A stretch of DNA of 35,960 bases from an uncultured Gammaproteobacteria bacterium (GTDB lineage Bacteria; Patescibacteriota; Microgenomatia; PFEM01; CAZTHI01). Made by a program: the position numbers and the translations under genes. Below, in pieces: positions 761-33,701 of the stretch. How positions within the stretch are numbered: position 1 is the first letter of the stretch; the number at the start of each line of letters is the position of its first letter. The stretch covers positions 1 to 35,960 of the forward strand of contig CAZTHI010000003.1 in assembly GCA_964613135.1 (NCBI GenBank), in the 5' to 3' direction. The notes beneath the pieces were generated by a model, which had not been told where the DNA came from, made no database searches, and saw only the letters and a program-made list of their open reading frames with translations.

Positions 761-1393
761 TTATCTGCTTCCGCGACGGGCCTTTTCGGCTTCGGCCAAT
801 TCCAAAAAATATTCAAATTCCACCGGAGGTTTAAGCCCCTCCTCAATAATTGCCTGAATTACTCGCTGCTCTGCCAACTCCTTCCGTCTATCATAAGGAG
901 GAGGGTCCGTCCATTCTTCCTCCGCTTGTTCCATTAGAATTTCTTTGATTACCAGCTCTTCCATTAAAAACCTCGCATTCGGATGGTTAGCTTTAAAAAA
1001 AGATGGTTCAACAGTCCTTCCGTCAATAAGGGCTATAAAAATGTCTTTGCTATTTTTATTAAAATCATCGTCATACCTAGTCACAATTGACAGTTTACGG
1101 TGCTTAATCTCTATCCCTCGAGGTACCCAAAAGGTGCCGAAGCTTACGCCTGTTTCGTAATAGGGCCATGTTGCTTCTAAACTAACCTCCGCCAGAATCG
1201 GGGTTTCTGCAGTCACCTTATCTAAGTTCGGCGAAACTAATACTTCTCCTAATCTCCAAATCTCATCCCTTATTTGTAAAAAAGTTTTTTGGCAACCAAA
1301 ACTTTCCAAGACAGAGAGAAGTGGGAGCACTTTTTCCAGAACATCCCTCCGTTTAATCTCTTTATAGGCTTCGACTCTTTCTTGCCAGCCCAT
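761..1393 (-). CDS. hypothetical protein (no recognisable domain)
   Basis: ORF 761..1429. The internal ATG at 1393 is preferred because AGGAGAAAAT precedes it and the paralog at the window start begins at the same residue. Confidence 0.6.
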   Translation of the reverse strand: MGWQERVEAYKEIKRRDVLEKVLPLLSVLESFGCQKTFLQIRDEIWRLGEVLVSPNLDKVTAETPILAEVSLEATWPYYETGVSFGTFWVPRGIEIKHRKLSIVTRYDDDFNKNSKDIFIALIDGRTVEPSFFKANHPNARFLMEELVIKEILMEQAEEEWTDPPPYDRRKELAEQRVIQAIIEEGLKPPVEFEYFLELAEAEKARRGSR

Positions 1394-1500: not shown

Positions 1501-1908
1501 TTAACCTGAGCTGCCCATCTTTTTTCTCACGAAATCAAAAATCTCTTCGGCACATTTTTTAGCCTTCAGGGCATCATCTTCTTTTAACTCTCCTTCTAAA
1601 AGATGACCATTGGGATAGCGTGTCGCAATATAAAACTTATCAAGGAACCTAAGCTTTTCTCTAATTTGATTAATTTCTGGCGCTAACTCTTCTACCTCTT
1701 TGGCCAAACGCTCTAAAGAATGAATCTTTATTGGTTTTTTGCCAAAAAATAACCATAAGGCTTTTAGGGATTTCTCCGCTACTTGTTGACTCCAAAAAGA
1801 GACCGCCACATAAAGTTTTCCCTTTAAATCCCATTGAATATACTTAAGTTCGTTCTCTGCCGTCGCCAGAAAATCCTCAATGTCCTTTTGGTATTTAGGC
1901 GGCTTCAT
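1501..1908 (-). CDS. HEPN domain protein (toxin-like partner of the MNT)
   Basis: Contains AEKSLKAL...FYIATRYPNGH, giving the R-x4-H HEPN motif. Start taken at the internal ATG 1908; the ORF extends to 1941. Confidence 0.75.
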   Translation of the reverse strand: MKPPKYQKDIEDFLATAENELKYIQWDLKGKLYVAVSFWSQQVAEKSLKALWLFFGKKPIKIHSLERLAKEVEELAPEINQIREKLRFLDKFYIATRYPNGHLLEGELKEDDALKAKKCAEEIFDFVRKKMGSSG

Positions 1909-2215
1909 AAATAACTTTTCCTTTACCCAAGACCTCTTCAATAAACATTCTATTTTCCTTCTTCGCCCGAGAAAACTCCTGGGGAGTATAGACTACCGGG
2001 TCAACGGGTATCTCAAACTCCGCCACTAAATCCAATACTTCACCAATTCGATCCATAAAACGCTTCTTCGTTTTTTTAAGAATAAATAAGTCTAAATCAC
2101 TTTGGGCCCCAAATTTCCCTTCGGCAGCTGAGCCAAAGAGAATAATTTTTTCTGGTTGATACTCCTGAAGAGCAATAACAATATTTTTCAGGGTTGTTTT
2201 GAATAAGTCCGCCAT
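1895..2215 (-). CDS. minimal nucleotidyltransferase (MNT), pol-beta superfamily
   Basis: LFGSAAEGKFGAQSDLDLFIL gives the GS...DxD motif. ATG at 2215 lies 9 nt below TGGTAGAAT; the ORF track begins at a TTG at 2224. Confidence 0.75.
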   Translation of the reverse strand: MADLFKTTLKNIVIALQEYQPEKIILFGSAAEGKFGAQSDLDLFILKKTKKRFMDRIGEVLDLVAEFEIPVDPVVYTPQEFSRAKKENRMFIEEVLGKGKVIYEAA

Positions 2216-2224
2216 CTTGGCCAA

Positions 2225-2233
2225 ATTCTACCA
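2225..2233 (-). promoter_or_regulatory. extended -10 (TGGTAGAAT) 9 nt upstream of the MNT ATG
   Basis: Minus strand reads TGGTAGAAT-ttggccaag-ATG. The 15-mer GTCCAGAAATTGCCA (2240..2254) just upstream recurs at 702..716. Confidence 0.45.
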
Positions 2234-2300
2234 CATCCTGTCCAGAAATTGCCAGCACGATAGAGTAGAAGAGTAAAAGAGCGGGAGAGTAAAAATAATT

Positions 2301-2732
2301 TTAGGATTTCTTCGCAAGAAATTTGAGGATATAGCCGCAATATTGAGCGTATTGGCGGACGGCCTGAGCCACTGATTTGTAAATAATCTCTTCTTGGGTA
2401 TCGTTATACTCATGCACCAAACGGTTTCTCAACCCGGCGCTGGGGGCAATTTTCTGGACAAAATCCCGGGGGTAAATCCCCAAATCCGCTAAAACATAAA
2501 AGGTGTCTTCGTAACCCCTGATTTTCTCATCACCCTTACCCAGCTCGGCAATCAAATGTTGATTAATATCAATCGCCCGCATAATAATTTTTTCCAACAA
2601 CCGCTCCACCGCGCTCATTTTCGTAAAGTCGGCCGCCAACTCCTTAAATGAGATCTGGCTTAGTGCCTCTAGTCGGCCTAGGTCTTCCTGAATGAGTTTT
2701 ATTTTTCGGCGAACAAAGTTTTTATCAAGCAT
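2301..2732 (-). CDS. hepT: HepT-like (DUF86) HEPN toxin
   Basis: 143 aa. RNRLVHEY gives the R-x4-H motif in DUF86 context. Overlaps mntA by 8 bp. Confidence 0.8.
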   Translation of the reverse strand: MLDKNFVRRKIKLIQEDLGRLEALSQISFKELAADFTKMSAVERLLEKIIMRAIDINQHLIAELGKGDEKIRGYEDTFYVLADLGIYPRDFVQKIAPSAGLRNRLVHEYNDTQEEIIYKSVAQAVRQYAQYCGYILKFLAKKS

Positions 2733-3150
2733 ACTTTTGGTTCAGATAATTTTGATACTTATCGATCAAATGCTTTTCCAATTTAAATAAGTCTTTCGCA
2801 TCATAATAAATTCTGAAAGCGTAGGCCCGAAACTCGTTATAATCAGAAAGCGTGCCATAGAGCAATTGGCTGTCTTTGGCGACCTGATAACAAAAAAGCG
2901 GGTCGGCTTGATGAAGAGATTTAAGGTCCAGCTCCCGATTTTGATCATCGCCAAAAACCCCAGCCAAATCTCCATGAAGACTAAGCAGGATTTCAAACTT
3001 AATCGGTTTTTTGCCCAAAACGGCAATATCTAAATCACTGTTTTTGCCGGCGGTGTTTTTGGCATAAGAACCATGTAAAAGTATCAATTTTAGCTGACAT
3101 TTTCCCCCGATTTTTTTAATTTTCTGCTTCTGTTCTTTGGTTATTTTCAT
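2725..3150 (-). CDS. mntA: MntA-like nucleotidyltransferase antitoxin
   Basis: LLHGSYAKNTAGKNSDLDIAVL gives the GS...DxD motif. Sits upstream of and overlaps hepT. Confidence 0.8.
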   Translation of the reverse strand: MKITKEQKQKIKKIGGKCQLKLILLHGSYAKNTAGKNSDLDIAVLGKKPIKFEILLSLHGDLAGVFGDDQNRELDLKSLHQADPLFCYQVAKDSQLLYGTLSDYNEFRAYAFRIYYDAKDLFKLEKHLIDKYQNYLNQKYA

Positions 3151-3295: not shown

Positions 3296-4189
3296 ATGGA
3301 ACAACATCCGGTACCACAAAATATTGCCTCTTACGAATTCCGTTTGGTCGGCGACATGACCATCAAGCAGTTTGCTTATTTGGCCACCGGCTGTTTGGTG
3401 GGCTTGGTCCTCTATAGTTCTGCCTTGCCCGCCTTTATCAAATTGCCGCTAGCTTTTGGCGCGGGTTTTTTGGGGTTTGCTTTTGCTTTTTTGCCCATCG
3501 AAGAGCGGCCCTTAAGCCAATGGCTGATGGCTTTCAGCAAGGCGATTTTTGCGCCGACCCAATTTATCTGGAAAAAACAAATTAGAGAACCGGAGCTTTT
3601 TCGGCCTTCAACGCCAATCCCGGCCGCTGCGGCCAAGAACAGTCCCATTCCGCCCACCGACCGGAAACAACTGGAGGAGTATTTGAAAACATTACCCTAC
3701 CAGCCGGCGGCGACCAGTTTGGACCAAAAAGAAGCCGACTATTTGCAAAGATTACAGGCACTGGGTCAAGCCGCTCCCTCGGTGGCGCCAACCCCGATCA
3801 TTATGCCGATAAAAATCACGCCGGTGAGAAAAGCGCCGGTTTTTGAAGCCAAAACCAGCCTGCAACTACCCATTCCCACCCCGCCCGACCGGCCCAATAT
3901 TCTGGTGGGCATGGTTTTAGACGCCACCAACCAAATGATTGAAGGGGCCATTTTGGAAATCCGGCGCAGCGACGACATGCCGGTTCGGGCCTTAAAAACC
4001 AATAAACTGGGCCAATTCCAAATTGTCACGCCGCTGGCCAACGACACCTACGAAATCGAGATCGAAAAGGAAGGCTATCAATTTGATATAATTAAAATCG
4101 AAGTGAAAGGGGAAATTATCTCACCCTTAGAGATCCACGCGCGCGCTAGGGCGCAAATGGAGAATGTCGAATTGAGAATGATGAATTAA
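3296..4189 (+). CDS. PrgI/VirB3-like membrane protein with a C-terminal carboxypeptidase-regulatory-like beta domain
   Basis: N-terminus QNIASYEFRLVGDMTIKQFAYL plus two TM helices, as in PrgI-family proteins. C-terminal GMVLDATNQ..YEIEIEKEGYQF. The last ~10 codons lie in a heptamer array. Confidence 0.6.
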   Translation: MEQHPVPQNIASYEFRLVGDMTIKQFAYLATGCLVGLVLYSSALPAFIKLPLAFGAGFLGFAFAFLPIEERPLSQWLMAFSKAIFAPTQFIWKKQIREPELFRPSTPIPAAAAKNSPIPPTDRKQLEEYLKTLPYQPAATSLDQKEADYLQRLQALGQAAPSVAPTPIIMPIKITPVRKAPVFEAKTSLQLPIPTPPDRPNILVGMVLDATNQMIEGAILEIRRSDDMPVRALKTNKLGQFQIVTPLANDTYEIEIEKEGYQFDIIKIEVKGEIISPLEIHARARAQMENVELRMMN

Positions 4190-4194
4190 AAATG
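4160..4194 (+). repeat. heptamer-periodic array (gagaatg tcgaatt gagaatg atgaatt aaaaatg), left arm around the four-helix-bundle gene
   Basis: 7-bp periodicity read directly. It is an imperfect reverse complement of 4555..4589. It spans the stop of the upstream ORF and the ATG of the next gene. Confidence 0.7.
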
Positions 4195-4548
4195 GAGAAA
4201 AGAAAAGACATTCTCGAAAGAACTTTTAAATTTGGGGTGGCGATCATCAAGCTGGCAAATTTTTTACCGAAAACGCCATCGGGTTTTACCATCACCAATC
4301 AAATTGTTCGTTCCGGAACCAGCGTTGGTGCCAACATTGAAGAAGCCCAAGATGCGTCAACTAAAAAGGAATTTATTAAAAGCGTCAGTATCGCCCTAAG
4401 GGAAGCAAGGGAAACTAAATTTTGGTTAAGAACGGCGACGGAATCGGATAACTTAAAACCGGAAATAACAAAAAACATTTTGAACGAATCGGAAGAATTA
4501 ATCAAAATTTTAGTGGCAATTATTAAAAAATCAAAAATGAATTTATGA
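4192..4548 (+). CDS. four-helix-bundle protein (23S rRNA intervening-sequence protein family)
   Basis: RTFKFGVAIIKL...QIVRSGTSVGANIEEAQ...KEFI..L.IALREARETKFWL is the family signature. Confidence 0.85.
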   Translation: MEKRKDILERTFKFGVAIIKLANFLPKTPSGFTITNQIVRSGTSVGANIEEAQDASTKKEFIKSVSIALREARETKFWLRTATESDNLKPEITKNILNESEELIKILVAIIKKSKMNL

Positions 4549-4554
4549 TTCTTT

Positions 4555-4589
4555 CATTCTCAATTATCAATTCTCAATTCTTAATTTCA
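4555..4589 (+). repeat. heptamer-periodic array (cattctc aattatc aattctc aattctt aatttca), right arm
   Basis: Five 7-bp units, complementary in family to 4160..4194. Ends 4 nt before the next ATG. Confidence 0.7.
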
Positions 4590-4593
4590 TAAT

Positions 4594-5328
4594 ATGGTCG
4601 ATCCTGCCAAAGTCGCCATCCGCGCTTCCACTCAGCAATATTTAAATATTGAGGATATTCTCGATGACGTGGTGATTTTAAAAGACGGCGGCGCCTGTTT
4701 GGTCATCATGGCCACCGCTATCAACTTTGGCTTACTTTCGGAAAAAGAGCAGGACGCCACCATTTACGCCTACGCCAGCCTGCTTAATTCCTTAACCTTC
4801 CCCATCCAAATTGTCATCCGTTCCCAAAAAAAAGATATTTCCGCTTATATCAAGCTTTTGGGCGAGGCGGAGGCCAAGGAAACCCGGCCAAAAAATAAAG
4901 AACAAATCCGCCAATACCGGAATTTTGTCACCCAAACCGTGCAAAAAAATGACGTCCTGGACAAAAAATTTTATTTAACCATTCCCATGACCGCCCTGGA
5001 ATTGGGGATTACTCAAGGCTTAACCGCCGGCCTGGCGCCCAAAAAAGGGCTTTCCTTTGAAAAAAATTATGTTTTGGAGCGGGCCAAAATTAATCTTTAT
5101 CCCAAGCGCGACCATTTATTCCGTTTGCTGGCCCGGCTGGGTTTAAAAAGCCGGCAACTAAACACGACCGAATTAATCCAACTTTTCTTCACGATTTATA
5201 ATCCGGAATCTTCGGGCCAAGGCATTGTTAGCGCAGAACAATATGAGGCGCCGCTGGTCCAATCAAATAAACCACCAACCGAGGTTTACAAAAAGATTAA
5301 CGAACTGGTTTCGGAGGGTGCCAAATGA
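4594..5328 (+). CDS. T4SS-associated protein resembling a VirB4 N-terminal domain (no ATPase motifs)
   Basis: YLNIEDILDDVVILKDGG..INFGLLSEKEQDA..YASLLNSLTFPIQIVIRS resembles the N-domain of Gram-positive VirB4/TrsE. Its stop overlaps the next gene's start (ATGA). Confidence 0.4.
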   Translation: MVDPAKVAIRASTQQYLNIEDILDDVVILKDGGACLVIMATAINFGLLSEKEQDATIYAYASLLNSLTFPIQIVIRSQKKDISAYIKLLGEAEAKETRPKNKEQIRQYRNFVTQTVQKNDVLDKKFYLTIPMTALELGITQGLTAGLAPKKGLSFEKNYVLERAKINLYPKRDHLFRLLARLGLKSRQLNTTELIQLFFTIYNPESSGQGIVSAEQYEAPLVQSNKPPTEVYKKINELVSEGAK

Positions 5329-8300
5329 ATCTGCCTTTTACCTCCCCCAAACCTCTTCCCCCAACATCGCCCAATGCCCAGCTGGCCAAAGGGCTAGTGG
5401 ATATCCAGGACGTCATCGCGCCGCCGGCGATTGAAGTTGATTTCGATTTTTTACGCATCGGCAACAAATATTTCCGCACCCTTTTTGTCGCCGGCTATCC
5501 GCGCTTTGTGTCCGCTAATTGGCTGGCGCCCTTAATTAATTTTGACCACACTCTGGAAATCGCCATGTATATTTATCCTATCGAGGGCCGGGGAGTGTTG
5601 GATGACTTGCGCCGGAAAACCGCAGAGATGGAAGCCGAAATGCAGATTGACTTGGAAAGAGGCCGCATGGTTGATCCGGGCACCAAAGCCAAATTGGAAG
5701 ACGCTCAAAAACTCCAGGAGCAACTGATCAAAGGTGTGGAGCGCTTCTTTCAGTTTGGGTTGTACGTGACTATTCCGGCCGATTCCTTACAAGAGTTAAA
5801 CCAAATTTCCAAACAAGTGGCTGCCACCCTGGGCTCGCTGCTGATTGTTGCCAAACACGCTACCCTGCAAATGGAGGACGGCTTTAAAACCACTATTCCT
5901 ACCTGCACCGACAAATTGATGATCACCCGCAACATGGACACCACCTCCTTGGCCACCACCTTTCCTTTTACCTCTTCGGAATTGACCGCCAACGAAGGCA
6001 TTTTATACGGCATCAACGAGCACAATGATTCTTTAATTGTCTTTGACCGGTTCACTTTGGAAAACGCCAACTCGGTGATTTTCGGAAAAGCGGGCTCGGG
6101 AAAATCGATTTATCGCGATTGTCCCATCCTTTTTGATGATGGTCAAGGGCCAAGAATCGGCAAGATTGGACCGTTGGTTGAGGGTTTGATTGCCAAAAAT
6201 GGAGCGAGCAAAATTGAGGAGGGAATTGAGGGAGTGATTAATCCCGAACTGAAAGTTTTCACTTTTGACCAAAATCTTAAAGGAAAATGGGCCAGTGTCA
6301 CTGTGGCCGCCCGGAAAAGATTTTCTCCTCGAAATCGTCTTTATCAAATTACAACCCAAAGTGGCCGCGAAATCACCGTTACTGCTGACCATAATTTAGT
6401 TGTTCTCCGTCATGGCAAAATTCGGGTAATGCGTAGTGAAGCCGTCAAAACCGGGGAAAGAATTCCTTTATCGAGGGTTTTACCCGCACCAGAAACTTGG
6501 CCCGGCCAGATTAACCCCAAAGATCTTGTTGACCAGTGGCCTGATTTCTTACCCCAACAGATTCCCCTCAATAAGGAAATTCTTTCCCTTCTAGGTCTTA
6601 TTACCAGCGAAGGTTACCTCGGCCCTCAACAGCTTTCAGTCTACAACGAAGTTCCCCTGGTACACAAGGCAATCATCTCGGGGGCAAAAATTCTGGGAGC
6701 AAAAATCAAGCCAATCTTTAAAAATAGAGGTAAAAATATTAAGGGGTTTTATCTTCAGCCAGCCTGGTTTAAAAAATTGTTCATCGCTCTTGGGGCCGGA
6801 GGGAAATCGGGAGAAAAACGGGTGCCGCCGGTTATTTTTTCCCTCTCCAATAAACAGGTTGCTAATTATCTGCGAGCTTATTTTGAAGGGGATGGGGAAA
6901 CTGGTTCCAATGGTGAAGTCGGGGCGACCTCTAAATCCAAAGAGCTTGTTTCTGATTTGACCTATTTGCTTTTGCGGTTCGGCATTGTCGCCCGAATCAG
7001 AAAAAAATGGAAAAGAGCAACTAATACAAATCATCAGGGAGACTACTACTATCAACTGGTTATTTCCGGCCAAGACAACCTCTTGTCCTTTATTAAAAAT
7101 GTTGGCTTCTTAAATGCCCAGAAGAATAGAAGAGTAGAAAAATTTATAAAACGAGCGACCAACACCAACGTTGACACCATTCCTGCTCTTGAGCCGATCC
7201 TCAAAAAACTTTACCGGGCTCTTTTTTCTGCTTCAGAAATCAAGGCCCCGGCTTACTTTTGCGAACTGATGAGAGGCGAGAAAACACCCTCCAGGGAAAT
7301 TCTCAAACAGATTATTAAGGATTGCGAGGGGCGCATCCAGGGGCTTAAAGAAAATCGCCAAAAAATTATCTTTCTCAAGAGCTTGCCTGATCTGAAAGAA
7401 CTTTATCAAAGGACCACTTATCACCGAAAGCTCAACCGTTTAGCCTGGCAAAATTTAGGTCAGTCCTGGAGATTAATGAAAAATCAAGCGGTTTCTCCAG
7501 GATTAGTAAATGTTTTACGGCTCTACCAGACTGTCGACGGCCAAACCATCGCCGTTCCTGAAGTAAAAGAAACGATCTATCAATCCTTTGCCGTCTCTGG
7601 TCTTTCTTTGCGAAAATTTGATGACGGACTTTGGGATGCCGTCACTCAAAACAAAAACGGCGACACTCAATATCAAAAAGTTATTCTGGCTATTCAGTAT
7701 CTTAACCAAAAATATCGTTCAATTCAGCTCTCCCTCCGTCATGCTGAAGAAAAACTTTCTTGGTTAAAGCTTTTAGCCAATTCTGATCTCTTTTGGGACC
7801 CCATTGCCAAAATCGAGAGAATCAAGCATCAAGAAAAATACGTCTATGACCTAATGGTTAACAACGAGGTTTTTCTGGCTGGTTTGGGGGGAATGTTTGT
7901 TCACAATTCCTATCTGGTCAAACTGGAAATCTTGCGGTCTTTAATGTTCGGCACGGAAATTATCGTCATTGACCCAGAGGCGGAATATAAAACTTTATGC
8001 GAGGCCGTTAACGGCGAATACATTACTTTCGGATTCCGCAGTCCTGCCAAAATTAATCCCTTTGACTTATCGGCGATTTACGAAGAAGGGGAAAACGAGC
8101 TGAACTTAAAAATCCTGGGGCTTCATTCACTCTTTAAGGTCATCATGGGCCAGCTGAACCCGACTGAAGAAGCGGTTTTGGACCGGGCCTTGATTTTGAC
8201 TTACAAAATGAAAGGCATTACCCCCGAACCGGCCACGCAAAACCGGGAGCCGCCACTGATGGAGGATTTGTACAAAGCCTTGCGGGGTATGGAAGAACCA

Positions 8301-8909
8301 CAGGCTTCACAACTCGCCGACCGGATTGAGAAATTCGTCAAGGGCAGCTTTATGGGTATTTTTGATCAGCCCTCCAACGTCAATATTAAAAACCCCTTTA
8401 CCGTTTTTTCCATCCGCGATCTGGAAGAAACACTCCGGCCGATTGCCATGTTTATCATTTTGGATTATATTTGGACGAAAATCCGCCGCGAAATGAAAAA
8501 AAGAATTTTGCTCGTGGACGAAGCCTGGTACCTGATGAAATATCCGGACTCGGCCAGCTTTATGTATTCGATTGCCAAACGGGCGCGTAAATATTATTTG
8601 GGCCTCACTACCATCACCCAGGACGTGGAGGATTTTTTGGGCACCGATTACGGCAAAGCGATTGTCAGCAACTCGTCGTTACAAATTTTAATGAAGCAAT
8701 CTTCGGCTTCCATTGATAAAGTGGCGGAAACCTTCTATCTTTCCGAGGGCGAAAAACAGCTGTTGCTTTCCGCAGACGTGGGCGAGGGCTTATTTTTTGC
8801 CGGCCAAAATCATGTCGCTCTCCGCGTGGTCGCTTCGCCCGAAGAGCACCGCCTGGTGACCACTAAACCTTCGGAGATTTTAGCCCAAGCCCAAAACCGG
8901 CCAATCTAA
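5325..8909 (+). CDS. VirB4/PrgJ-like type IV secretion ATPase interrupted by an intein
   Basis: VirB4-like N-domain (FRTLFVAGYPRFV), Walker A GKAGSGK|S split by an insert, Walker B RILLVDEAWYL, and ITQDVEDF. 1194 aa; 593 aa after excision. Confidence 0.85.
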   Translation: MNLPFTSPKPLPPTSPNAQLAKGLVDIQDVIAPPAIEVDFDFLRIGNKYFRTLFVAGYPRFVSANWLAPLINFDHTLEIAMYIYPIEGRGVLDDLRRKTAEMEAEMQIDLERGRMVDPGTKAKLEDAQKLQEQLIKGVERFFQFGLYVTIPADSLQELNQISKQVAATLGSLLIVAKHATLQMEDGFKTTIPTCTDKLMITRNMDTTSLATTFPFTSSELTANEGILYGINEHNDSLIVFDRFTLENANSVIFGKAGSGKSIYRDCPILFDDGQGPRIGKIGPLVEGLIAKNGASKIEEGIEGVINPELKVFTFDQNLKGKWASVTVAARKRFSPRNRLYQITTQSGREITVTADHNLVVLRHGKIRVMRSEAVKTGERIPLSRVLPAPETWPGQINPKDLVDQWPDFLPQQIPLNKEILSLLGLITSEGYLGPQQLSVYNEVPLVHKAIISGAKILGAKIKPIFKNRGKNIKGFYLQPAWFKKLFIALGAGGKSGEKRVPPVIFSLSNKQVANYLRAYFEGDGETGSNGEVGATSKSKELVSDLTYLLLRFGIVARIRKKWKRATNTNHQGDYYYQLVISGQDNLLSFIKNVGFLNAQKNRRVEKFIKRATNTNVDTIPALEPILKKLYRALFSASEIKAPAYFCELMRGEKTPSREILKQIIKDCEGRIQGLKENRQKIIFLKSLPDLKELYQRTTYHRKLNRLAWQNLGQSWRLMKNQAVSPGLVNVLRLYQTVDGQTIAVPEVKETIYQSFAVSGLSLRKFDDGLWDAVTQNKNGDTQYQKVILAIQYLNQKYRSIQLSLRHAEEKLSWLKLLANSDLFWDPIAKIERIKHQEKYVYDLMVNNEVFLAGLGGMFVHNSYLVKLEILRSLMFGTEIIVIDPEAEYKTLCEAVNGEYITFGFRSPAKINPFDLSAIYEEGENELNLKILGLHSLFKVIMGQLNPTEEAVLDRALILTYKMKGITPEPATQNREPPLMEDLYKALRGMEEPQASQLADRIEKFVKGSFMGIFDQPSNVNIKNPFTVFSIRDLEETLRPIAMFIILDYIWTKIRREMKKRILLVDEAWYLMKYPDSASFMYSIAKRARKYYLGLTTITQDVEDFLGTDYGKAIVSNSSLQILMKQSSASIDKVAETFYLSEGEKQLLLSADVGEGLFFAGQNHVALRVVASPEEHRLVTTKPSEILAQAQNRPI
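6105..7907 (+). mobile_element. 601-aa intein with a LAGLIDADG homing endonuclease domain, in the VirB4 P-loop
   Basis: Starts SIYRDCPILFDDG (block A). Has TADH (block B), LLGLITSEGY and YLRAYFEGDG (two LAGLIDADG motifs), and ends FVHN|S. Excision restores GKAGSGKSYLVK. Confidence 0.8.
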
Positions 8910-10616: not shown

Positions 10617-11727
10617 CCGGCATAATCAAATGCAGGGCCTCTTTTTCTTCGGCATTGGTAAAAACACCCGGCGCCAGCGGTCCGGTCATCTCAAAATTAA
10701 TGAGCTGGGCTTCGTTGGAATTTAAGAAATCCAAAAGATAGCGGGCATTAAAAGCGATACTGCCACCTTCACCTTCGGTCTTGATTTCGACTTCAATCGC
10801 GTTTTCCCCAACTTGCGCCGCATTGGCGCTGACTTGCAACTTTGAGCTTTGAACTTTGAACTTAATAATATTGGCTGATTCACGGGCAAAAATGGCCGCC
10901 GTCCGCACCGCTCCCAGCAAGCTGACTCTATCCAAGGTGATTTTCGTGGTCGCCTTCCCCGGTAAGATTTTTTCGTAATCGGGGAATTTCCCTTCAATCA
11001 AGCGGGTGACAATTTCCGCTTCGGGCGTGGAAAAAATCGCCTGATTGGCTTGCGGCGTAATCGTTAAGCCCAAAGTTTTACCTTCTTCCGCCTCGCCGAT
11101 AATTCTACCAACCTCCGCCAGGGTTCGGGAAGGAATCAGCAAACCGGCCGCCAACTCTTTAATTTCTTTGCCTTTTAAAGTGGTTTTAATTTTTTGAAAG
11201 CTCAAACGATAGCCATCGGTGGCCACCAAAGTCAGATCATCTTCTTCCAAACGGACCAAAACGCCGTTGAGTTGAGGCCGGCCTTCATCTTGGGCCGCCG
11301 CAAAAGCCACTTGACCAATCGCTTTAGAAAAAGCGTGGCTTTCCAAAGAAATTTCCGGCTCGGACGTGATCGTCGGCACACTGGGAAATTCACCGGCCGG
11401 CAAACAGACAAAACTGGCCTGGTAATTGCCGCAGCCTAAAGACAGCAAATTTTCTTTCAGCTCCAAATCGATTTTCCCGGCCGGTAAAGAAGCGACGTAT
11501 TCGTTGAAAATTTTGGCGGGAATGGAAGTCGCGCCTTCTTTTTCAATCTTGGCGCCCACCCAAAAATTAATGCCGGTTTCCAAATTGGTGGCGGAAAGTT
11601 TCAGTCGGCCTTTATCGGTGGCCAGTAAAATATTGGCTAAAATCGGTAATTGAGCTTTAGTGGTCACGGAGCGACTAACAATGGTAAGACCACGAACAAG
11701 GTTTTCTTGGAAAACGGAAAGTTTCAT
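10600..11727 (-). CDS. dnaN: DNA polymerase III beta sliding clamp
   Basis: 375 aa. MKLSVFQENL...LPILANILL...ATDGYRL...ALHLIMPVR are classic DnaN blocks. Lies downstream of dnaA. Confidence 0.95.
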   Translation of the reverse strand: MKLSVFQENLVRGLTIVSRSVTTKAQLPILANILLATDKGRLKLSATNLETGINFWVGAKIEKEGATSIPAKIFNEYVASLPAGKIDLELKENLLSLGCGNYQASFVCLPAGEFPSVPTITSEPEISLESHAFSKAIGQVAFAAAQDEGRPQLNGVLVRLEEDDLTLVATDGYRLSFQKIKTTLKGKEIKELAAGLLIPSRTLAEVGRIIGEAEEGKTLGLTITPQANQAIFSTPEAEIVTRLIEGKFPDYEKILPGKATTKITLDRVSLLGAVRTAAIFARESANIIKFKVQSSKLQVSANAAQVGENAIEVEIKTEGEGGSIAFNARYLLDFLNSNEAQLINFEMTGPLAPGVFTNAEEKEALHLIMPVRVQE

Positions 11728-15450: not shown

Positions 15451-15462
15451 AAACTCGAAGCA

Positions 15463-15570
15463 CGAAATTCGAAATTCTAAACAATATCAAAACTCAAATA
15501 TCAAATGTTTAAAATTTTGGATTTTGATGATTGGGATTTGTTTAGGATTTAGAAATTAGAATTTAGAGTT
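15463..15570 (+). repeat. long imperfect hairpin built from two heptamer-periodic arrays (rpmH-rnpA spacer)
   Basis: 5' arm: cgaaatt cgaaatt ctaaaca atatcaa aactcaa atatcaa. 3' arm: ttttgga ttttgat gattggg atttgtt taggatt tagaaat tagaatt tagagtt. Several paired blocks, for example 15472-15480 with 15556-15564. Confidence 0.7.
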
Positions 15571-15580
15571 TATCTTTTTT

Positions 15581-15940: not shown

Positions 15941-16148
15941 ACTTTACCAAAAATCATTCTTGGTTCGTTCCTCAATTCTGAAGGCTCTTTTTCTTTCTGA
16001 TGCTGCCTGTCGTTTCCGGCCCACTTGCTCGGAATATACCTATCAGGCCATCGAAAGGTATGGTATAATGCGAGGAAGTTGGTTGGGATTAAGGCGGATC
16101 TCGAAGTGTCACCCATGGAGTCGAGGGAGGTTTGATCCTTTGAAATAA
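15912..16148 (+). CDS. yidD: membrane protein insertion efficiency factor YidD
   Basis: [19 protein letters not shown]...[11 protein letters not shown] is the YidD signature. Confidence 0.9.
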
Positions 16149-16228
16149 ATCCAAATTACAAAGTTCAAATGGCAAATCATCCGCCAGCCAGCGGATTGGA
16201 CTTTGAACTTGAATTGGCATTTGGATTT
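16147..16228 (+). repeat. long imperfect hairpin from heptamer-periodic arrays (yidD-yidC spacer)
   Basis: 5' arm: aaatcca aattaca aagttca aatggca aatcatc. 16147-16156 pairs perfectly with 16219-16228, and the GC clamp 16079-16084-equivalent atccgc/gcggat closes the loop cagcca. Confidence 0.6.
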
Positions 16229-16258
16229 TGAAATTGAGATTTTAGTATTATTAGTTTT

Positions 16259-17098
16259 ATGACTGAACTCTGGAACGTTTTGCTATACCAACCGTTTGTT
16301 AATCTCCTGATGCTTTTATATCAGCTACTTTTCCATAATTTTGGCCTGGCGATTATCGTTTTGACGGTGGCCCTCCGTACCGTTTTAATTCCCTTGACTC
16401 TCCCCTCCATGAAGTCGGCCGAAAAAATGCGCCAATTGGCGCCGGAATTAGAACGGCTTAAGAAAAAATACGGTTCCGACAAGCAGGCATTTGCTAAAGC
16501 GCAAATGGATTTTTATCGCCAACAGGGTATCAACCCGGCTGCCGGCTGTTTGCCGCAAATTGTCCAACTGGTGATTTTAATTGCTCTCTATCAGGCCTTT
16601 ATCCAGGTGTTAAATCCCAACGCCCAGGAGGTAGTTAGAAAGCTAAACACTTTGCTTTATCAACCGTTAAAATTGGCGGAAGACACGGTCATCAACACCC
16701 AATTTCTCTGGCTGAATTTGGCCAAGCCGGACGTGATTAAAGTGGCCGGTTTGGGCTTTCCTTTGCCGGGGCTATTTTTAATCGCCGCGGCCTTAATTCA
16801 ACTGATCTCTTCCAAAATGATGATGCCGGTGCTAGCGGCCGTCCAAAAAGACGCGGCCCAAACTCCGGAAAAAACCGACGACATGGCGACCAGCATGCAG
16901 ACACAAATGACCTATCTTTTTCCGTTGATGACCATTCTAATCGGCTTTACTTTTCCTTCCGGTTTGGTTTTGTACTGGTTTATCTTTTCTTTGTTTACCG
17001 CCGTTCAGCAATATTTTGTGAGCGGCTGGGGAGGCTTGACACCATGGATAAATAAATTGAAAATTGAAAATGGAAAATTTAAAATTAAAGACCATTGA
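16259..17098 (+). CDS. yidC: membrane protein insertase YidC (short form)
   Basis: 279 aa with GLAIIVLTVALR..PL, GINPAAGCLPQIVQ, and GLVLYWFIFSLFT. The C-terminal tail is encoded by a heptamer array. Confidence 0.9.
   Translation: MTELWNVLLYQPFVNLLMLLYQLLFHNFGLAIIVLTVALRTVLIPLTLPSMKSAEKMRQLAPELERLKKKYGSDKQAFAKAQMDFYRQQGINPAAGCLPQIVQLVILIALYQAFIQVLNPNAQEVVRKLNTLLYQPLKLAEDTVINTQFLWLNLAKPDVIKVAGLGFPLPGLFLIAAALIQLISSKMMMPVLAAVQKDAAQTPEKTDDMATSMQTQMTYLFPLMTILIGFTFPSGLVLYWFIFSLFTAVQQYFVSGWGGLTPWINKLKIENGKFKIKDH
17054..17088 (+). repeat. heptamer array (aaattga aaattga aaatgga aaattta aaattaa) spanning the yidC 3' end and the jag 5' end
   Basis: Five 7-bp units. It encodes the YidC tail KLKIENGKFKIK and the Jag N-terminus MENLKLK in different frames. 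Confidence 0.7.
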
Positions 17099-17534
17099 GG
17101 AAATAACGCAAGATTTACTGAGCCGCTTGGGGGTGGAAGTAAAGATCTCTGTTGAAGAAAGCGAAGGGGTTTTTAATGTCCAGCTGGAAACTAAGGAGCC
17201 GGGGATTTTAATCGGCTATCACGGCGAAACCTTGGCGGCCATTCAGCTGATCGTGGGAATGATGGTTTGGCGGAAATCGGGAGCGTGGACCAAAATCCTG
17301 GTTAATGTTGGCGATTACCGGGAAAGACGCCAGGAATCTTTGGCAAGAATGGCTGTCTCAGTGGCTCAGGAAGCTAAACTCTCCGGCCAACCGCAAACCC
17401 TACCGCCGATGTCTGCTTTTGATCGCCGCCTAATTCACTTGGCTCTGGCGGCGGACCCGGCAGTGGAAACGCTTTCCGAGGGTGAAGGCAAAGACCGGCA
17501 TGTGGTCGTTAAGACTAAACAACCTTCATCGTAG
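17070..17534 (+). CDS. jag: Jag/KhpB-like KH + R3H RNA-binding protein
   Basis: GYHGETLAAIQLIV (KH-like) and FDRRLIHLALA (R3H). ATG at 17070; the ORF track begins at a TTG at 17064. Canonical position after yidC. Confidence 0.8.
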   Translation: MENLKLKTIEEITQDLLSRLGVEVKISVEESEGVFNVQLETKEPGILIGYHGETLAAIQLIVGMMVWRKSGAWTKILVNVGDYRERRQESLARMAVSVAQEAKLSGQPQTLPPMSAFDRRLIHLALAADPAVETLSEGEGKDRHVVVKTKQPSS

Positions 17535-18738
17535 TTTTTTTGGGGCACTTTGTTTGCTACTTCCTGTCCAGCTTGGCGCTCACTTTTGGCCTAATTTTGC
17601 TTATGTCATGGGCCTGCGGATCGATTATCTGGCGCCGACAATTTATTTAACCGATCTTTTGGTCGTAGTAATACTGGGATTATGGGGCTTGGACTGTTGG
17701 CGAATTCGCGAATTACGAATTACGAATTACGAATTACGGAAATATTGGTGGATATTAGCAGTTTTTGTTTTGTTGCTAGCCGGTTCGCTCCTGGCTCAAA
17801 ACCAAAGGGCAGCGCTGTATAAATTTGCCAAAATCGCGGAGTTTTCTTTACTTGGTCTTTATGTGGCCAAGAGCCGCGAGACGCGAGACGTCATACGAAA
17901 GACGCTCTCTATTGCTGTTCTCTACTCTTCTCTGATTGCGCTGGTTCAGTTTTTCAAACAATCTTCCCTGGGTGATCTTTTTTGGTGGTTGGGCGAGCGG
18001 ACTTTTACCGTGGCCACGCCGGGAATTGCCAAAGCAGTGGTCAACGGTGAACTTTTAATGCGGCCCTACGCCACCTTCTCCCACCCCAACGCTCTGGCCG
18101 GCTTTCTGCTGGTGGGTTTAATCTTAACCTTGCCATATTTTCTTCAAAGGCATAAGCTATTCACTATTCCCTATACCCTATTCCCTATTCTGGCCATCGC
18201 CCTCTCTTTCTCCCGCTCGGTTTGGCTGGTGGGCTTGCTCGTGGCATTTTTCTGTCTTTTCCGAAAAAAGAAATTCTTTCTAGTTATTAGTTATTTGTTA
18301 TTAGTTATTAGTTGTTTGTTATTAGTTACTAGTTATTCCGCCGACGAGGCGATTTCTCAGCGACTCCAATTGATTAAAGCGGCAGTTTTAATGATCCAAG
18401 GCAACCTTTTGGCGGGCGTCGGTTTGAATAATTTTTTGGTCCGCTTGCCGGAATTCTGGGGACCGATCGGCACTACCTTCTGGCTCCAACCGGTGCATAA
18501 TATTTATCTTTTGATCGCCGCCGAAACCGGCCTGACCGGCTTGCTGGTTTTTCTCTGGTTTTTGGTTTTAACCTTCAAGAAATTATCAATTCTCCATTCT
18601 CCATTGTCCATTGCGCTTGGTGCCATCCTGTTGCTGGGCCTGGCGGATCATTATTGGCTGACGCTGCAACAAAACCAACTTCTCTTCGCGCTTGTTTTGG
18701 GGCTGAGTTGGGAAGGACAAAGAGGGTTTAAAAGTTAA
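17482..18738 (+). CDS. O-antigen ligase/polymerase-like (Wzy_C) polytopic membrane protein
   Basis: Multiple TM helices, with RPYATFSHPNALAGFL and PVHNIYLLIAAETGLTGLL. Start uncertain (GTG 17482 or ATG 17500). Contains five short-period arrays. Confidence 0.7.
   Translation: MKAKTGMWSLRLNNLHRSFFGALCLLLPVQLGAHFWPNFAYVMGLRIDYLAPTIYLTDLLVVVILGLWGLDCWRIRELRITNYELRKYWWILAVFVLLLAGSLLAQNQRAALYKFAKIAEFSLLGLYVAKSRETRDVIRKTLSIAVLYSSLIALVQFFKQSSLGDLFWWLGERTFTVATPGIAKAVVNGELLMRPYATFSHPNALAGFLLVGLILTLPYFLQRHKLFTIPYTLFPILAIALSFSRSVWLVGLLVAFFCLFRKKKFFLVISYLLLVISCLLLVTSYSADEAISQRLQLIKAAVLMIQGNLLAGVGLNNFLVRLPEFWGPIGTTFWLQPVHNIYLLIAAETGLTGLLVFLWFLVLTFKKLSILHSPLSIALGAILLLGLADHYWLTLQQNQLLFALVLGLSWEGQRGFKS
17701..17738 (+). 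repeat. heptamer tandem repeat, (cgaatta)x4 perfect plus a degenerate unit, inside a CDS
   Basis: cgaattcg cgaatta cgaatta cgaatta cgaatta cgg. Encodes RIRELRITNYELRK. Confidence 0.85.
18157..18191 (+). repeat. heptamer array (ctattca ctattcc ctatacc ctattcc ctattct) inside a CDS
   Basis: Five units. Encodes LFTIPYTLFPIL. Confidence 0.8.
18281..18336 (+). repeat. heptamer array, 8 units (tagttat tagttat ttgttat tagttat tagttgt ttgttat tagttac tagttat), inside a CDS
   Basis: 56 bp. Encodes LVISYLLLVISCLLLVTSY. Confidence 0.85.
18581..18615 (+). repeat. heptamer array (aattatc aattctc cattctc cattgtc cattgcg) inside a CDS
   Basis: Same unit family as 4555..4589. Roughly complementary to 17054..17088. 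Confidence 0.75.
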
Positions 18739-18759
18739 AAAGTTTAAGGGTTTAAAAAG
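18724..18759 (+). repeat. octamer-periodic array (gggtttaa aagttaaa aagtttaa gggtttaa), left flank of the second four-helix-bundle gene
   Basis: 8-bp periodicity. It supplies the last codons and the stop of the ligase-like ORF. Confidence 0.7.
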
Positions 18760-18760
18760 A

Positions 18761-19225
18761 CTAAGAGGGTTTGAGTTTCTGGAGAGTGTCGGGGGCGTAT
18801 TTTCGCATAAATTCTTCCCAGCTTTCTTCTTTTTTGGCCGATTTATATTTTAAACCTTTATACCCTGAAACCTTTAAACTTTGAATTAGGTAGTAAATCA
18901 TGGCCGAAACCCGTTTGGCTAAAACCGAAGCTTGTTGGAAATCCTGGGGGCTAATGAATTTTTGATCCAAGGCAATATAAAGTTGGGTGCGGGCCTCGCC
19001 GCAGGATCCCTTGGCGATAAAAAGAAAATAAATCAGTTCTTCTCTGGTGCCGCGTTCAAACCCCTCGGCGATATTGGAAATCACGGAAACGGCCGCCCGC
19101 TGAATTTGGTCTTTTAAGGAAAAGTCGGAGAAAGTTTTTTGGCGGGTTAGCCCATAAATGAGGTTAACTAATCTTTTCCCCTCCTGCCAGCAAGTTAAGT
19201 CTTTGAATCTTTTAACCGACGTCAT
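18761..19225 (-). CDS. four-helix-bundle protein (23S rRNA intervening-sequence protein family)
   Basis: FKDLTCWQEGKRLV..IY..T..F..DFSLKDQIQRAAVSVISNIAEGFERGT..E.IYFL.IAKGSCGEARTQL is the family signature. Confidence 0.85.
   Translation of the reverse strand: MTSVKRFKDLTCWQEGKRLVNLIYGLTRQKTFSDFSLKDQIQRAAVSVISNIAEGFERGTREELIYFLFIAKGSCGEARTQLYIALDQKFISPQDFQQASVLAKRVSAMIYYLIQSLKVSGYKGLKYKSAKKEESWEEFMRKYAPDTLQKLKPS
18848..18886 (+). repeat. octamer-periodic array, complement of the flanking arrays, inside the 3' part of the four-helix-bundle CDS
   Basis: Reverse complement reads aagtttaa aggtttca gggtataa aggtttaa. Encodes the SLKVSGYKGLKYK tail. Confidence 0.65.
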
Positions 19226-19228
19226 ACT

Positions 19229-19257
19229 TTAAGGTTTAAAAGTTTAACGGTTTAAGG
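19229..19257 (+). repeat. octamer-periodic array (tttaaggt ttaaaagt ttaacggt ttaagg), right flank and leader of the second four-helix-bundle gene
   Basis: Direct repeat of the 18724..18759 family, inverted relative to 18848..18886. Confidence 0.7.
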
Positions 19258-19289
19258 CCCGCCTGGCGGCGAGGCGGGGTTTAACCAGA

Positions 19290-19310
19290 TTTTAGCACAC
19301 TGTGCTAAAA
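19290..19310. promoter_or_regulatory. 21-bp palindrome TTTTAGCACA-C-TGTGCTAAAA forming face-to-face extended -10 elements
   Basis: Plus strand: TGCTAAAAT (19303..19311), then 7 nt, then the ATG at 19319. The minus-strand mirror element points at the four-helix-bundle gene. Confidence 0.5.
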
Positions 19311-26320: not shown

Positions 26321-26396
26321 AATGGAATTCGATATATCAGTTTACTAACTGCTATAGCGAATGGAATTCGATATATCAGTTTACTAACTGCTATAG
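26321..26396. repeat. perfect 37-bp tandem duplication (AATGGAATTCGATATATCAGTTTACTAACTGCTATAG) separated by CG
   Basis: Copies at 26321..26357 and 26360..26396. The second copy contains the stop codon of the kinase gene. Confidence 0.9.
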
Positions 26397-27362
26397 ATAC
26401 TTTTCGAAGTAGATAAATTTCCTATATCTCCTGCATTGAGTAGCTCTGGTTATTCGTGAATCAGTCGGCAAATCTGCAAAAAAAGTGCAGGCGTCACTCA
26501 AACAGGAAAAGCAAATCCATTGGTATAAATTTTTATCAGGGGATATTTTTTGAGGGGCAGATTTATTGTAACCTTCCAAAAAAGACATAAATATCTCTTC
26601 CCAATGATGTTCTAAGCCGTCGGGAAGTGACCATTCGGCCAAAGCAATTCCTAAATCTTTAATAAGAGGTCCCTTACATGACCAATCAAAATCAACAACG
26701 GCCGAAACGGAAAACTTGTCAAATAATATATTACTAGGGATAAAATCATTATGGATAATACCCATGTCGCCTTGATATTGCCGAGCCCATTTCAAATATG
26801 ATTCAATTATAGTTAGAAACTCGGAACCCCCATCCAGTTTTACGATGGAATCTCTGCGCAAAAGCGCTCTTTCATATTCGGTAAAAATAGTGCGTCGTTT
26901 ATGATTTTCGTACGTAAAAGAAAGGCCCGCTACGTGTAATCGCGCTAATGCTTCCCCTGCGGCGCAAGCATATCGGATATCGGGCTTAGTATCATGTTCA
27001 ACCGCTATAGTTGTACCTGATATAAAACGAAAAGCTACTGTTGTGACCCCATTGATTACTACCCAGAGATTTCTCTTCGTCGTCATTAAAATTTCAGGCA
27101 CTGGAGCCCGGTGTTCAAATAGGAAATTTAAAAGCGTAGCTTCGAAGTCGACAGTTTCGGTGATGTTACGTTTACTGAGGCGCAAAACACCCTTGCTACC
27201 ATTAGCCATCGTAAACACATACATATCATTATCAACTCCCTCTTGGAGTAGTAAAAGAGGATAGGAGGGATCGAATCCATATAAAGGTAAAATCTTACGC
27301 GCGAACTTTTGGATATCCATAATCTCTAAATACATTGTAAGAGAACGAGGAAATTTGAGCAA
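26391..27362 (-). CDS. aminoglycoside/choline-kinase-type phosphotransferase (APH family)
   Basis: Catalytic loop IIHNDFIPSNILFD and metal-binding VVDFDWS. Start uncertain (TTG 27362; ATGs 27 and 42 nt downstream). Confidence 0.8.
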   Translation of the reverse strand: MLKFPRSLTMYLEIMDIQKFARKILPLYGFDPSYPLLLLQEGVDNDMYVFTMANGSKGVLRLSKRNITETVDFEATLLNFLFEHRAPVPEILMTTKRNLWVVINGVTTVAFRFISGTTIAVEHDTKPDIRYACAAGEALARLHVAGLSFTYENHKRRTIFTEYERALLRRDSIVKLDGGSEFLTIIESYLKWARQYQGDMGIIHNDFIPSNILFDKFSVSAVVDFDWSCKGPLIKDLGIALAEWSLPDGLEHHWEEIFMSFLEGYNKSAPQKISPDKNLYQWICFSCLSDACTFFADLPTDSRITRATQCRRYRKFIYFEKYL

Positions 27363-32981: not shown

Positions 32982-33701
32982 TTAAATAAATCTTTCTGCT
33001 TCTCGTTTTAATGTCTCCCTAAAGTTTCTGATAATAGCCCAATGACTTTTGGGTAAAAATTGCTTTAATTCAACCTCAAAGTTAATACCCGCACCTTTGA
33101 GTGTTTTGAGAGTTCGAGGCAAGATGTCTTTTTTTTCTGCCGATAAAAGATTTGAGCGGAGAATAAAGTATAAGTCATAAAAATCTCGGGGCTTTTTTCT
33201 TGCAAGCAAGGCCTGGACTTTCTCATCAATCAACTGCTCTTGTGATAATATTATAATGATATAAGGGGGAACAAAATCGTTTGCAACAGTGACAACCTCA
33301 CCTTTTTTATCACCTTCCCGAAGCGAAATATGCAGGAGAATTAATATGGTTTGCTCAAAAGCCTGAAAGATAATCTTTGCCAAATACCCACCGCTTGTCT
33401 GTTTTGCCTCTTGTAAGTTAGCCTTGATGCCTTCTTTCTCAATTGCCTCTAATGTTTGCAGGATTGCTTGCTCAATTGGTTTAATATCCTCAAGGGTCGT
33501 TGAAAAATCCAAATCTTCTGAAAAACGAGGACTTTGGTAGACCATTCTTAATGCCGTTCCTCCCTTAAAATAAATAACATCAGCTTGAGGCTGTTGATAA
33601 AAATATGAGAGGAACAAATGCTGAAAATATTCACGCCTAGTATTTAGCTCTGTGGTTTGATATTTATTTGCAAGTATTTTAATTTGTTCTTTGGTAATCA
33701 T
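32982..33701 (-). CDS. abiEii: AbiEii/AbiGii-family nucleotidyltransferase toxin
   Basis: YFKGGTALRMVYQSPRFSEDLDFS is the family core motif. Overlaps the upstream partner by 4 bp. Confidence 0.85.
   Translation of the reverse strand: MITKEQIKILANKYQTTELNTRREYFQHLFLSYFYQQPQADVIYFKGGTALRMVYQSPRFSEDLDFSTTLEDIKPIEQAILQTLEAIEKEGIKANLQEAKQTSGGYLAKIIFQAFEQTILILLHISLREGDKKGEVVTVANDFVPPYIIIILSQEQLIDEKVQALLARKKPRDFYDLYFILRSNLLSAEKKDILPRTLKTLKGAGINFEVELKQFLPKSHWAIIRNFRETLKREAERFI

Follow-up and report, generated by a model that had tools for sequence, protein, structure and literature searches.

A PF05635 gene between inverted heptamer arrays in a PrgI-TraC-like operon of a Microgenomates-group bacterium: a probable intervening-sequence-type cassette outside rRNA

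Cyanobacterial short tandemly repeated repetitive (STRR) heptamers are the closest known class of repeat to the arrays described here. They are said to be dispersed repeats that serve as fingerprinting targets, reportedly with no gene association described. Intervening sequences (IVSs) that contain an open reading frame (ORF) are reportedly found in the 23S rRNA of Leptospira. The 23S IVS of Coxiella burnetii is 428 nt long, lies in helix 45 and carries an S23p (PF05635) ORF in its loop; the inverted repeats at its termini make up a 28 bp stem, which RNase III cuts at the start of the first repeat (PMC4990558). Three tandem copies of GACAGAT and a degenerate fourth are found just 5' of the ATG, strains differing in whether they have two or three copies, and the ORF is decaying while the stem is kept (PMC4990558). 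PF05635 has also been described as Avd-like (PMC10053308), and a large screen counted it among CRISPR-associated families (PMC10910872). Here, we examine a PF05635 gene enclosed by inverted heptamer arrays in a protein-coding operon on contig CAZTHI010000003.1 (assembly GCA_964613135.1, positions 1 to 35 960). This stretch of 35 960 nt is referred to as the window.

The window is chromosomal and belongs to the Microgenomates group (candidate phyla radiation, CPR; Patescibacteria). It is 43 % G+C and holds the origin-region genes dnaA, dnaN, rpmH, rnpA, yidC and jag. The block at 4141..4592 is probably an IVS-type gene cassette that resides in a protein-coding operon rather than in an rRNA gene. 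The block and the genes on either side of it are as follows.

3296..4189 (+), PrgI-like host gene, 297 aa, matching Pfam PrgI (E 3e-7) and CarboxypepD_reg
4141..4154 (+), small GC hairpin (GCGC-loop-GCGC) directly 5' of the left array, predicted by folding
4156..4194 (+), left heptamer array, gagaatg/tcgaatt/gagaatg/atgaatt/aaaaatg, containing the host stop and the cargo ATG
4192..4548 (+), cargo four-helix-bundle gene, 118 aa, PF05635 (Avd/S23p family)
4552..4589 (+), right heptamer array, cattctc/aattatc/aattctc/aattctt/aatttca, the reverse complement of the left array
4594..5328 (+), TraC-like host gene 3' of the cassette, with a precomputed match to PF26593

The order of genes is PrgI-like, cargo, TraC-like and then a VirB4/TraG-type ATPase gene. 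A four-helix-bundle gene had been placed between the PrgI-like and VirB4-module genes by a first-pass annotation of this DNA, and the cargo product does match the PF05635 model 23S_rRNA_IVP with an E value of 3.4e-23 and a score of 82.3 bits, above the curated cut-off of 33.8. By sequence alone it also matches PDB 2RLD (E 9e-23). An AlphaFold2 monomer model of the 118 aa protein is predicted to be an up-down bundle of four helices, with a predicted local distance difference test score (pLDDT) of 95. In Foldseek comparisons, the template-modelling (TM) scores of this model were 0.84-0.92 to 2RLD and 0.79-0.87 to 2GSC, entries with five chains each, and about 0.75-0.8 to Avd (4DWL and 8UB7). Among orthologous cassettes, the ratio of non-synonymous to synonymous substitution rates (dN/dS) of the cargo protein is 0.08-0.30, one value being 0.17 at a dS of 0.11. 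On these ratios, the protein is judged to be under purifying selection and functional.

Arrays with a period of 7 bp lie on both sides of the gene and are reverse complements of each other, as had been claimed. Tandem Repeats Finder (TRF) detected 4156-4187 with a period of 14 (2x7, 83 %) and 4556-4586 with a period of 7 (4.4 copies, 87 %). In an inverted-repeat search, the arms 4156-4181 and 4554-4579 were 81 % complementary over 26 nt (72 % over 36 nt). The window contains seven strict period-7 arrays, versus 0 in shuffled sequences, and none with any other period within the range 5-12. When the arms were folded on their own, joined by a GAAA linker, the energy was -34.9 kcal/mol versus -21.4 +/- 3.5 kcal/mol in shuffles (z -3.85, 2/200).

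The neighbouring genes run into or up to the arms. That the left array supplies the end of the upstream gene and the start of the cargo can be read directly from the sequence: the last 10 codons of the PrgI-like ORF, stop included, fall within it, and the cargo ATG (4192-4194) belongs to its final unit. In most loci, alignments of PrgI-like homologues end at about residue 283-285 of the 297. The right array terminates 4 nt short of the ATG of the TraC-like gene, which in empty-site relatives abuts or overlaps the PrgI-like stop, according to the junction sequences. As three does not divide the period evenly, a start or stop codon within a unit recurs in all three frames, and a neighbour arriving in any frame can therefore use an array stop or start. 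This may be why neighbours so readily end or begin in the arms.

The small GC hairpin was found in 7/7 filled loci and in the array-only locus L009, and is missing at empty sites. Its left half consists of conserved Arg-Ala codons of the PrgI-like gene and its right half of added bases. Since the loops vary in length, each sequence was folded separately for comparison, and the stems exhibit compensatory variants (GCGC/GCGC, GCGCT/AGCGC, GGGCT/AGCCC and GAGCTC/GAGCTC).

The insertion is polymorphic. Using the TraC-like protein as query, 24 orthologous loci were collected from GTDB genomes, and most of the PrgI|TraC-like junctions in these related Microgenomates contain neither gene nor arrays, the stop abutting or overlapping the start (e.g. 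L007, L008, L014, L017 and L018). The gene is absent from the L009 junction, where left and right arrays of the same unit family are kept (gagaatt/gagaatg ... aattatc). An unrelated PF05635 gene (34-41 % identity to the window protein) occupies the L010 junction, and the PF05635 gene at the L023 junction has no detectable similarity to the 4192..4548 protein and resembles the protein of a second cassette in the window (see below). The units at these two junctions are different again (ctaat/attag; gttcat/atgaac). L022 and L023 are closely related, the former empty and the latter filled; where L022 has about 19 nt, L023 has about 420 nt. In a TraC+VirB4 tree, filled, array-only and empty loci are interspersed, so that presence among relatives is sporadic. 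From these sequences, the history of the junction is read as several losses and/or gains, with at least three independent occupations.

The closest homologues of the 118 aa protein (68-80 % identity) are all found at this junction, in at least seven genomes, and the genes flanking them have diverged about as much as the cassette protein has. On both counts a recent insertion was rejected. The proposal that the block is an insertion, for which a comparison of presence and absence had been suggested, was upheld, and the block is best regarded as an old insertion that has been inherited.

The arms have evolved in concert. Among orthologous cassettes the right arm has from 4 to >9 units, and the units drift on both arms; copy number (2 to >9) and unit sequence already vary among cassettes whose proteins are 70-80 % identical. 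Between the close relatives L031 and L040/L041, one substitution is shared by two adjacent units, which indicates conversion at the level of the unit.

An association between such arrays and four-helix-bundle genes had been put forward for testing genome-wide, and it holds well beyond the window. The CPR set comprised 49 non-redundant loci (286 kb), and family genes were detected with a hidden Markov model (HMM) built from 126 sequences. In all, 39 family genes from CPR, Cyanobacteria, Bacteroidota, Gemmatimonadota and Nitrospirae were tested, with 222 other genes as controls. The inverted-flank score, from local alignment of the upstream flank with the reverse complement of the downstream flank, had a median of 35 for the family genes versus 18 for the others (Mann-Whitney p 9e-13). 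A threshold of >=28 was reached by 27/39 family genes and 6/222 controls, and two of these six controls (L048 and L052) are neighbours of a cassette and share its arrays. Periodic arrays on both sides were found for 22/39 family genes versus 5/222 others (Fisher p 5.5e-17), four of the five controls again being cassette neighbours. Visual inspection of the CPR loci agrees with the statistics.

Period 7 dominates the CPR DNA, with 94 arrays in 286 kb versus 0 in shuffles. Heptamer arrays lying <=90 nt from a family gene account for 55/94, or 38/70 after merging (54-59 %), in a zone that makes up 6 % of the sequence, an enrichment of about 10-fold. Pairing of the arms is specific. Arms paired with their own partners gave -25.4 kcal/mol versus -16.5 kcal/mol when re-paired, and 0/10,000 re-pairings were as good (permutation p 1e-4). 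These duplexes were computed with 55-60 nt flanks; RNAduplex comparisons with 100 nt flanks were noisy because GC-rich coding flanks pair strongly by chance. Cross-compatibility of arms increases with protein identity, even across different sites (Spearman rho -0.24), and the arms are taken to accompany the gene. Chance intergenic repeats were rejected as the source of the arrays in view of their enrichment beside family genes, the preference for the own partner and the family-wide inverted flanks.

The same packaging was found at other kinds of site. In three metagenomic genomes (L043, L045 and L047), relatives of the window protein with 55-57 % identity lie directly 5' of tRNA-Asn(GTT), the cassette ending about 50 nt before it, and their unit, AATTGAC/AATTGTC, is related to that of the window cassette. 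All of the plasmid-borne family genes inspected (10/10) have 7-8 nt arrays and an inverted partner; the plasmid examples are from Nostoc (four), Calothrix, Anabaena, Pseudanabaena, Geminocystis, Picosynechococcus, Riemerella and Gemmatirosa. Some are wedged into operons, namely at cas6|cas4 (L070 and L071), at cmr2|cmr3 (L073) and, in antisense orientation, between nrdB and nrdA (L069). Two homologous Nostoc plasmid operons have the family gene at different junctions. In the Nostoc, Calothrix and Anabaena examples, the units beside PF05635 genes are of STRR type (TAGGGAG, CTACACC, CAGGAGT and GTGACAG). Judged from these loci, packaging of PF05635 genes in inverted heptamer-type arrays is a general arrangement, shared by almost all of the relatives examined and found in at least four phyla. 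The family-wide link of Avd/S23p-like genes with inverted heptamer arrays appears to be previously undescribed; no paper on the association outside rRNA was found in the searchable literature, though subscription papers were outside that search and an earlier description is possible. We also note that the upstream array in Anabaena sp. 90 spans about 280 nt. A tblastn search of phage genomes gave zero matches.

The second PF05635 gene of the window, here cassette 2, has the following features.

18761..19225 (-), cargo of cassette 2, 154 aa, PF05635 (E 2e-30, 105.6 bits)
19226..19258 (-), upstream 8-mer array of the gtttaaaa family (TRF 19234-19257)
18848..18885 (-), inner array of period 8 inside the ORF, encoding the conserved SLKVSGYKGLKYK motif
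18726..18759 (-), third array of period 8, 3' of the cargo stop, which gives the stop of the convergent Wzy_C-like gene

Members of the subfamily to which the cassette 2 protein belongs are 150-157 aa long and share a conserved C-terminal tail; the inner array of cassette 2 codes for the conserved motif SLKVSxYKGLKYK. The first-pass annotation had ascribed to it the same architecture as the first cassette. A PF05635 gene accompanied by arrays is indeed present, but the period is 8 rather than 7 and there are three arrays, one of them inside the ORF. The inner array can pair with the 19234-19257 array upstream of the ATG (86 % over 22 nt, 18864-18885) or, alternatively, with the post-stop array at 18726-18757 (78 % over 32 nt). 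This three-array layout recurs in L079, L075, L070 and L074. Two further structures were seen upstream: a GC-rich hairpin at 19259-19281 adjoins the upstream array, and a near-perfect palindrome, ttagcacactgtgctaa, occupies 19283..19310 in the intergenic region where cassette 2 and a polysaccharide-flippase-like gene diverge.

Hairpins without cargo had been reported elsewhere in the window, and two were recovered.

15454..15578 (+), cargo-less heptamer-array hairpin between rpmH and rnpA, fold z -2.59 (+) and -1.43 (-)
16147..16242 (+), cargo-less periodic hairpin upstream of yidC, fold z -4.09

The units of both are unrelated to those of either window cassette. A direct connection is seen in L048, where a hairpin at 1275..1343, upstream of rpoD, consists base-for-base of the left and right ends of a cassette at 2436..2932, downstream of rpoD. 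Together with the bare arms of L009, this shows that solo hairpins, or at least some of them, can derive from cassettes, whether by deletion or as copies of the arms only. A tRNA-like sequence follows the L048 cassette.

Several arrays in the window are solitary. Within the gene for a Wzy_C (O-antigen-ligase-like) membrane protein (17482..18738, +) are four or five heptamer arrays, in frame and solitary, at 17702-17744, 17866-17898, 18152-18193, 18274-18338 and 18577-18620, with the units CGAATTA (x4), GCGAGAC, CTATTCC, TAGTTAT (x8) and ATTCTCC. All lack an inverted partner, one or more of them falls within the Pfam domain, and the cassette model leaves them unexplained. An AAATTGA array at 17050..17091 forms the junction between the yidC stop and the jag start, and dnaN has an AACTTTG heptamer array in its coding sequence at 10831..10869; no partner lies within 200 nt of either array.

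On the reading we favour, that of an IVS-type cassette, a promoterless-looking PF05635 gene occupies the loop of a long stem with imperfect pairing, whose arms are inverted arrays of about five 7 nt units. Comparison of loci shows that the cassette was inserted at the PrgI-like stop and TraC-like start, and these neighbours now end or begin in or beside the arms. Long inheritance with a selected protein followed, with loss or reduction to bare arms in several lineages; units were gained, lost and converted, and the two arms evolved in concert. By analogy with rRNA IVSs, the cassette would be co-transcribed with the host operon, the arms would pair in the transcript and bring the host flanks together, and RNase III would cut the stem, setting the mRNA of the cargo free from those of the host genes. 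A possible role of the small GC hairpin is to shield the 3' end that cleavage would create on the upstream mRNA. Co-transcription is plausible on two grounds, namely that a scan found no terminator-like sites between the PrgI-like, cargo and TraC-like genes, where promoter-like matches were weak only, and that 38/46 close neighbours of family genes are co-oriented with them. Spread between sites and genomes would be occasional, the cassette presumably moving as a unit with its arms, and where the ORF is lost a solo periodic hairpin would remain, 15454-15578 and 16147-16242 being examples.

A number of observations weigh against this reading. The fold of the whole 451 nt region (4150-4600) gave -90.5 kcal/mol versus -88.5 +/- 5.5 kcal/mol in shuffles (z -0.37), and so the enclosing stem, for which a fold had been proposed as the check, stands for the arms alone and not for the region as a whole. 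However, the whole-region value is uninformative for the stem because the coding interior of about 360 nt dominates the energy, and the long-range pairing of the arms does appear in both the minimum free energy (MFE) and centroid structures. Pairing in the stems is imperfect, and transversion mismatches are numerous. G-U mismatches in the arms are not in excess of A-C mismatches (28 vs 20, p 0.31) and the sense and antisense duplexes have similar energies (p 0.59); arm complementarity could, for these reasons, be maintained at the DNA level. No target-site duplication was found at the L022/L023 boundary, a mobility enzyme was not found, nor was an rnc gene observed, and RNase III processing and mobility are both supposed by analogy. 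Some family genes, including cassette 2 of the window and L069, are antisense to both neighbours. In L070, L074 and L078 the flanking arrays are direct and the inverted partner is farther off, and the Nitrospirae member has mostly direct arrays. Arrays are absent around the single IMG/VR viral-contig member. Lastly, among the arrays far from family genes, 27/32 have no inverted partner and 15/32 are in coding sequence. Since partnerless heptamer arrays occur inside genes, not all arrays come from cassettes.

The main rival explanation, which is compatible with the stem model but which we consider rather unlikely as the primary account, is that the arrays are first of all binding sites for the cargo protein, each 7-8 nt unit providing one register on RNA or DNA, and that their inversion is secondary. 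By homology to Avd, Xcc0516 and BT_0352, the protein would be a basic pentameric ring, and by binding it would either autoregulate the cassette transcript, shield it or favour array growth. A period of 7 (sometimes 8) that is conserved across phyla when the unit sequence is not would be expected of such sites, as would arrays that are often about five units long and the direct proximal arrays of L070, L074 and L078. The protein is the sole conserved component and is apparently under purifying selection, the units co-diverge with it, and Avd belongs to an RNA-binding ribonucleoprotein (RNP) according to PDB 8UB7 and the literature on diversity-generating retroelements (DGRs). However, proteins that are 70-80 % identical already differ in the sequence and copy number of their units, and non-random pairing of an array with its own inverted partner is not required by binding. 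The Coxiella ORF, moreover, decays while the stem is kept (PMC4990558).

It is distinctly less probable that the cassette is a non-autonomous transposon resembling a miniature inverted-repeat transposable element (MITE), with a passenger gene and periodic terminal inverted repeats, moved in trans by a transposase. Inverted termini, the presence/absence polymorphism, an arm-only copy in the same contig (L048) and arms without strand asymmetry are all in keeping with a transposon of this type. On the other hand, the arms are wholly different between cassettes of one genome and between lineages, and one transposase could not recognize them all because their sequences differ completely. The lack of a target-site duplication at L022/L023 also counts against it, as does a scan of window ORFs of >=90 aa, which found no transposase domain, and most copies are old and syntenic.

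That there is no cassette, the gene being an ordinary component of the PrgI-VirB4 operon and the repeats generic intergenic simple-sequence repeats, is very improbable: homologues with 68-80 % identity do occur at exactly the same junction in at least seven genomes, apparently under purifying selection, and heptamer arrays without a gene do occur elsewhere in the window, but the gene is missing from most orthologous operons at equal evolutionary distance, this junction holds unrelated family members in L010 and L023, the same packaging is seen upstream of tRNA-Asn, in cas and ribonucleotide reductase (RNR) operons and in rRNA, and the arrays are enriched about 10-fold beside family genes and have arms that match each other specifically.

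A wider interpretation is offered tentatively, as a conjecture. PF05635 genes and inverted 7-8 nt arrays may constitute one pan-bacterial class of insertion cassette, of which ORF-bearing rRNA IVSs would be a special case and many STRR-type arrays and periodic hairpins of cyanobacteria and CPR would be arms or remains. A pentameric protein would recognize its own units, and in so doing maintain the arrays or drive persistence or spread of the cassette. The link between gene family and arrays would address why some rRNA IVSs carry a conserved ORF and what role this ORF family has outside rRNA. It would also address the scattered, often multi-copy, stand-alone Avd-like genes in cyanobacterial, Bacteroidota and CPR genomes, and the origin of bacterial heptamer repeats (STRR), making this origin and that of the IVS ORFs directly testable. 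The insertions in cas operons suggest a trivial reason for the link between PF05635 and CRISPR, and may explain the statistical 'association' of Avd-like genes. If the stems are RNase III sites, they would provide a general way for a gene to reside within an operon or rRNA gene while being excised from the RNA. In that case the annotation of operons would be affected, because adjacent ORFs take stops and starts from the arms, and a compact, portable design for an insulated gene would be available.

Other features of the neighbourhood are recorded here. The VirB4/TraG-type ATPase gene (5325..8909, +, 1194 aa) is split by an intein with a LAGLIDADG homing endonuclease at about aa 296-861 (Intein_splicing E 3e-16, LAGLIDADG_3 E 4e-17); its orthologues seem shorter, at 606-705 aa, but these are partial gene calls running off the fetched loci. 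Directly 5' of the PrgI-like operon, 1501..3150 contains two adjacent nucleotidyltransferase and HEPN/HepT toxin-antitoxin pairs, and an AbiEii-type toxin gene is found further along the window at 32982..33701. The PrgI-like gene was matched in two pieces in L017 (783-1298 and 3387-3668, a gap of about 2 kb) and in L030 (2224-2685 and 3696-3962, a gap of about 1 kb), which suggests a further insertion within that gene in both. A perfect 39 bp tandem duplication (26321..26396, 1.9 copies, 100 %) spans the 5' end and upstream region of an APH-type phosphotransferase gene (26391..27362, -).

Among known systems, MITEs and repetitive extragenic palindromic doublets forming hairpins (REPINs) are likewise short, intergenic, hairpin-forming inverted repeats, and the cargo-less copy in L048 is related to a longer parent. 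Unlike them, the cassettes have no terminal sequence conserved across copies, except in the L048 cassette/solo pair; no transposase, including the REP-associated tyrosine transposase (RAYT) type, and no target duplication was found, and the arms are periodic and evolve by gain and loss of units. The DGR protein Avd has the same fold and superfamily as the cargo protein. In contrast to DGRs, no reverse-transcriptase (RVT) domain was found in the scanned window ORFs of >=90 aa, though a template/variable repeat pair was never specifically sought.

The resemblance to ORF-bearing rRNA IVSs is closer. The IVS geometry recognized in the first-pass annotation is that of the Coxiella 23S IVS, which is similar in size (428 nt versus about 440 nt for the window cassette) and also has a PF05635 protein encoded in the loop, terminal inverted repeats as a stem, heptamers 5' of the ATG and variable copy number (PMC4990558). 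Sporadic distribution and shorter forms without an ORF are further common features. It was too much to propose a wholly uncharacterized class, as the rRNA-borne form has been known since the 1990s. Unlike rRNA IVSs, however, the window cassette lies between protein-coding genes and not in helix 45 of 23S rRNA, the position that defines an IVS; an Rfam scan of the window gave zero matches, rRNA included, and a tRNA scan found zero tRNAs. Both of its arms are periodic throughout, the adjacent ORFs read into them, and its cargo protein appears to be under purifying selection whereas that of Coxiella is decaying. With cyanobacterial STRR sequences, the window arrays share tandem heptanucleotide units, a period-specific excess, a mostly intergenic location and locus-specific unit sequences. 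They differ from STRR sequences as described in that they occur in inverted pairs around one gene family, and in a CPR bacterium.

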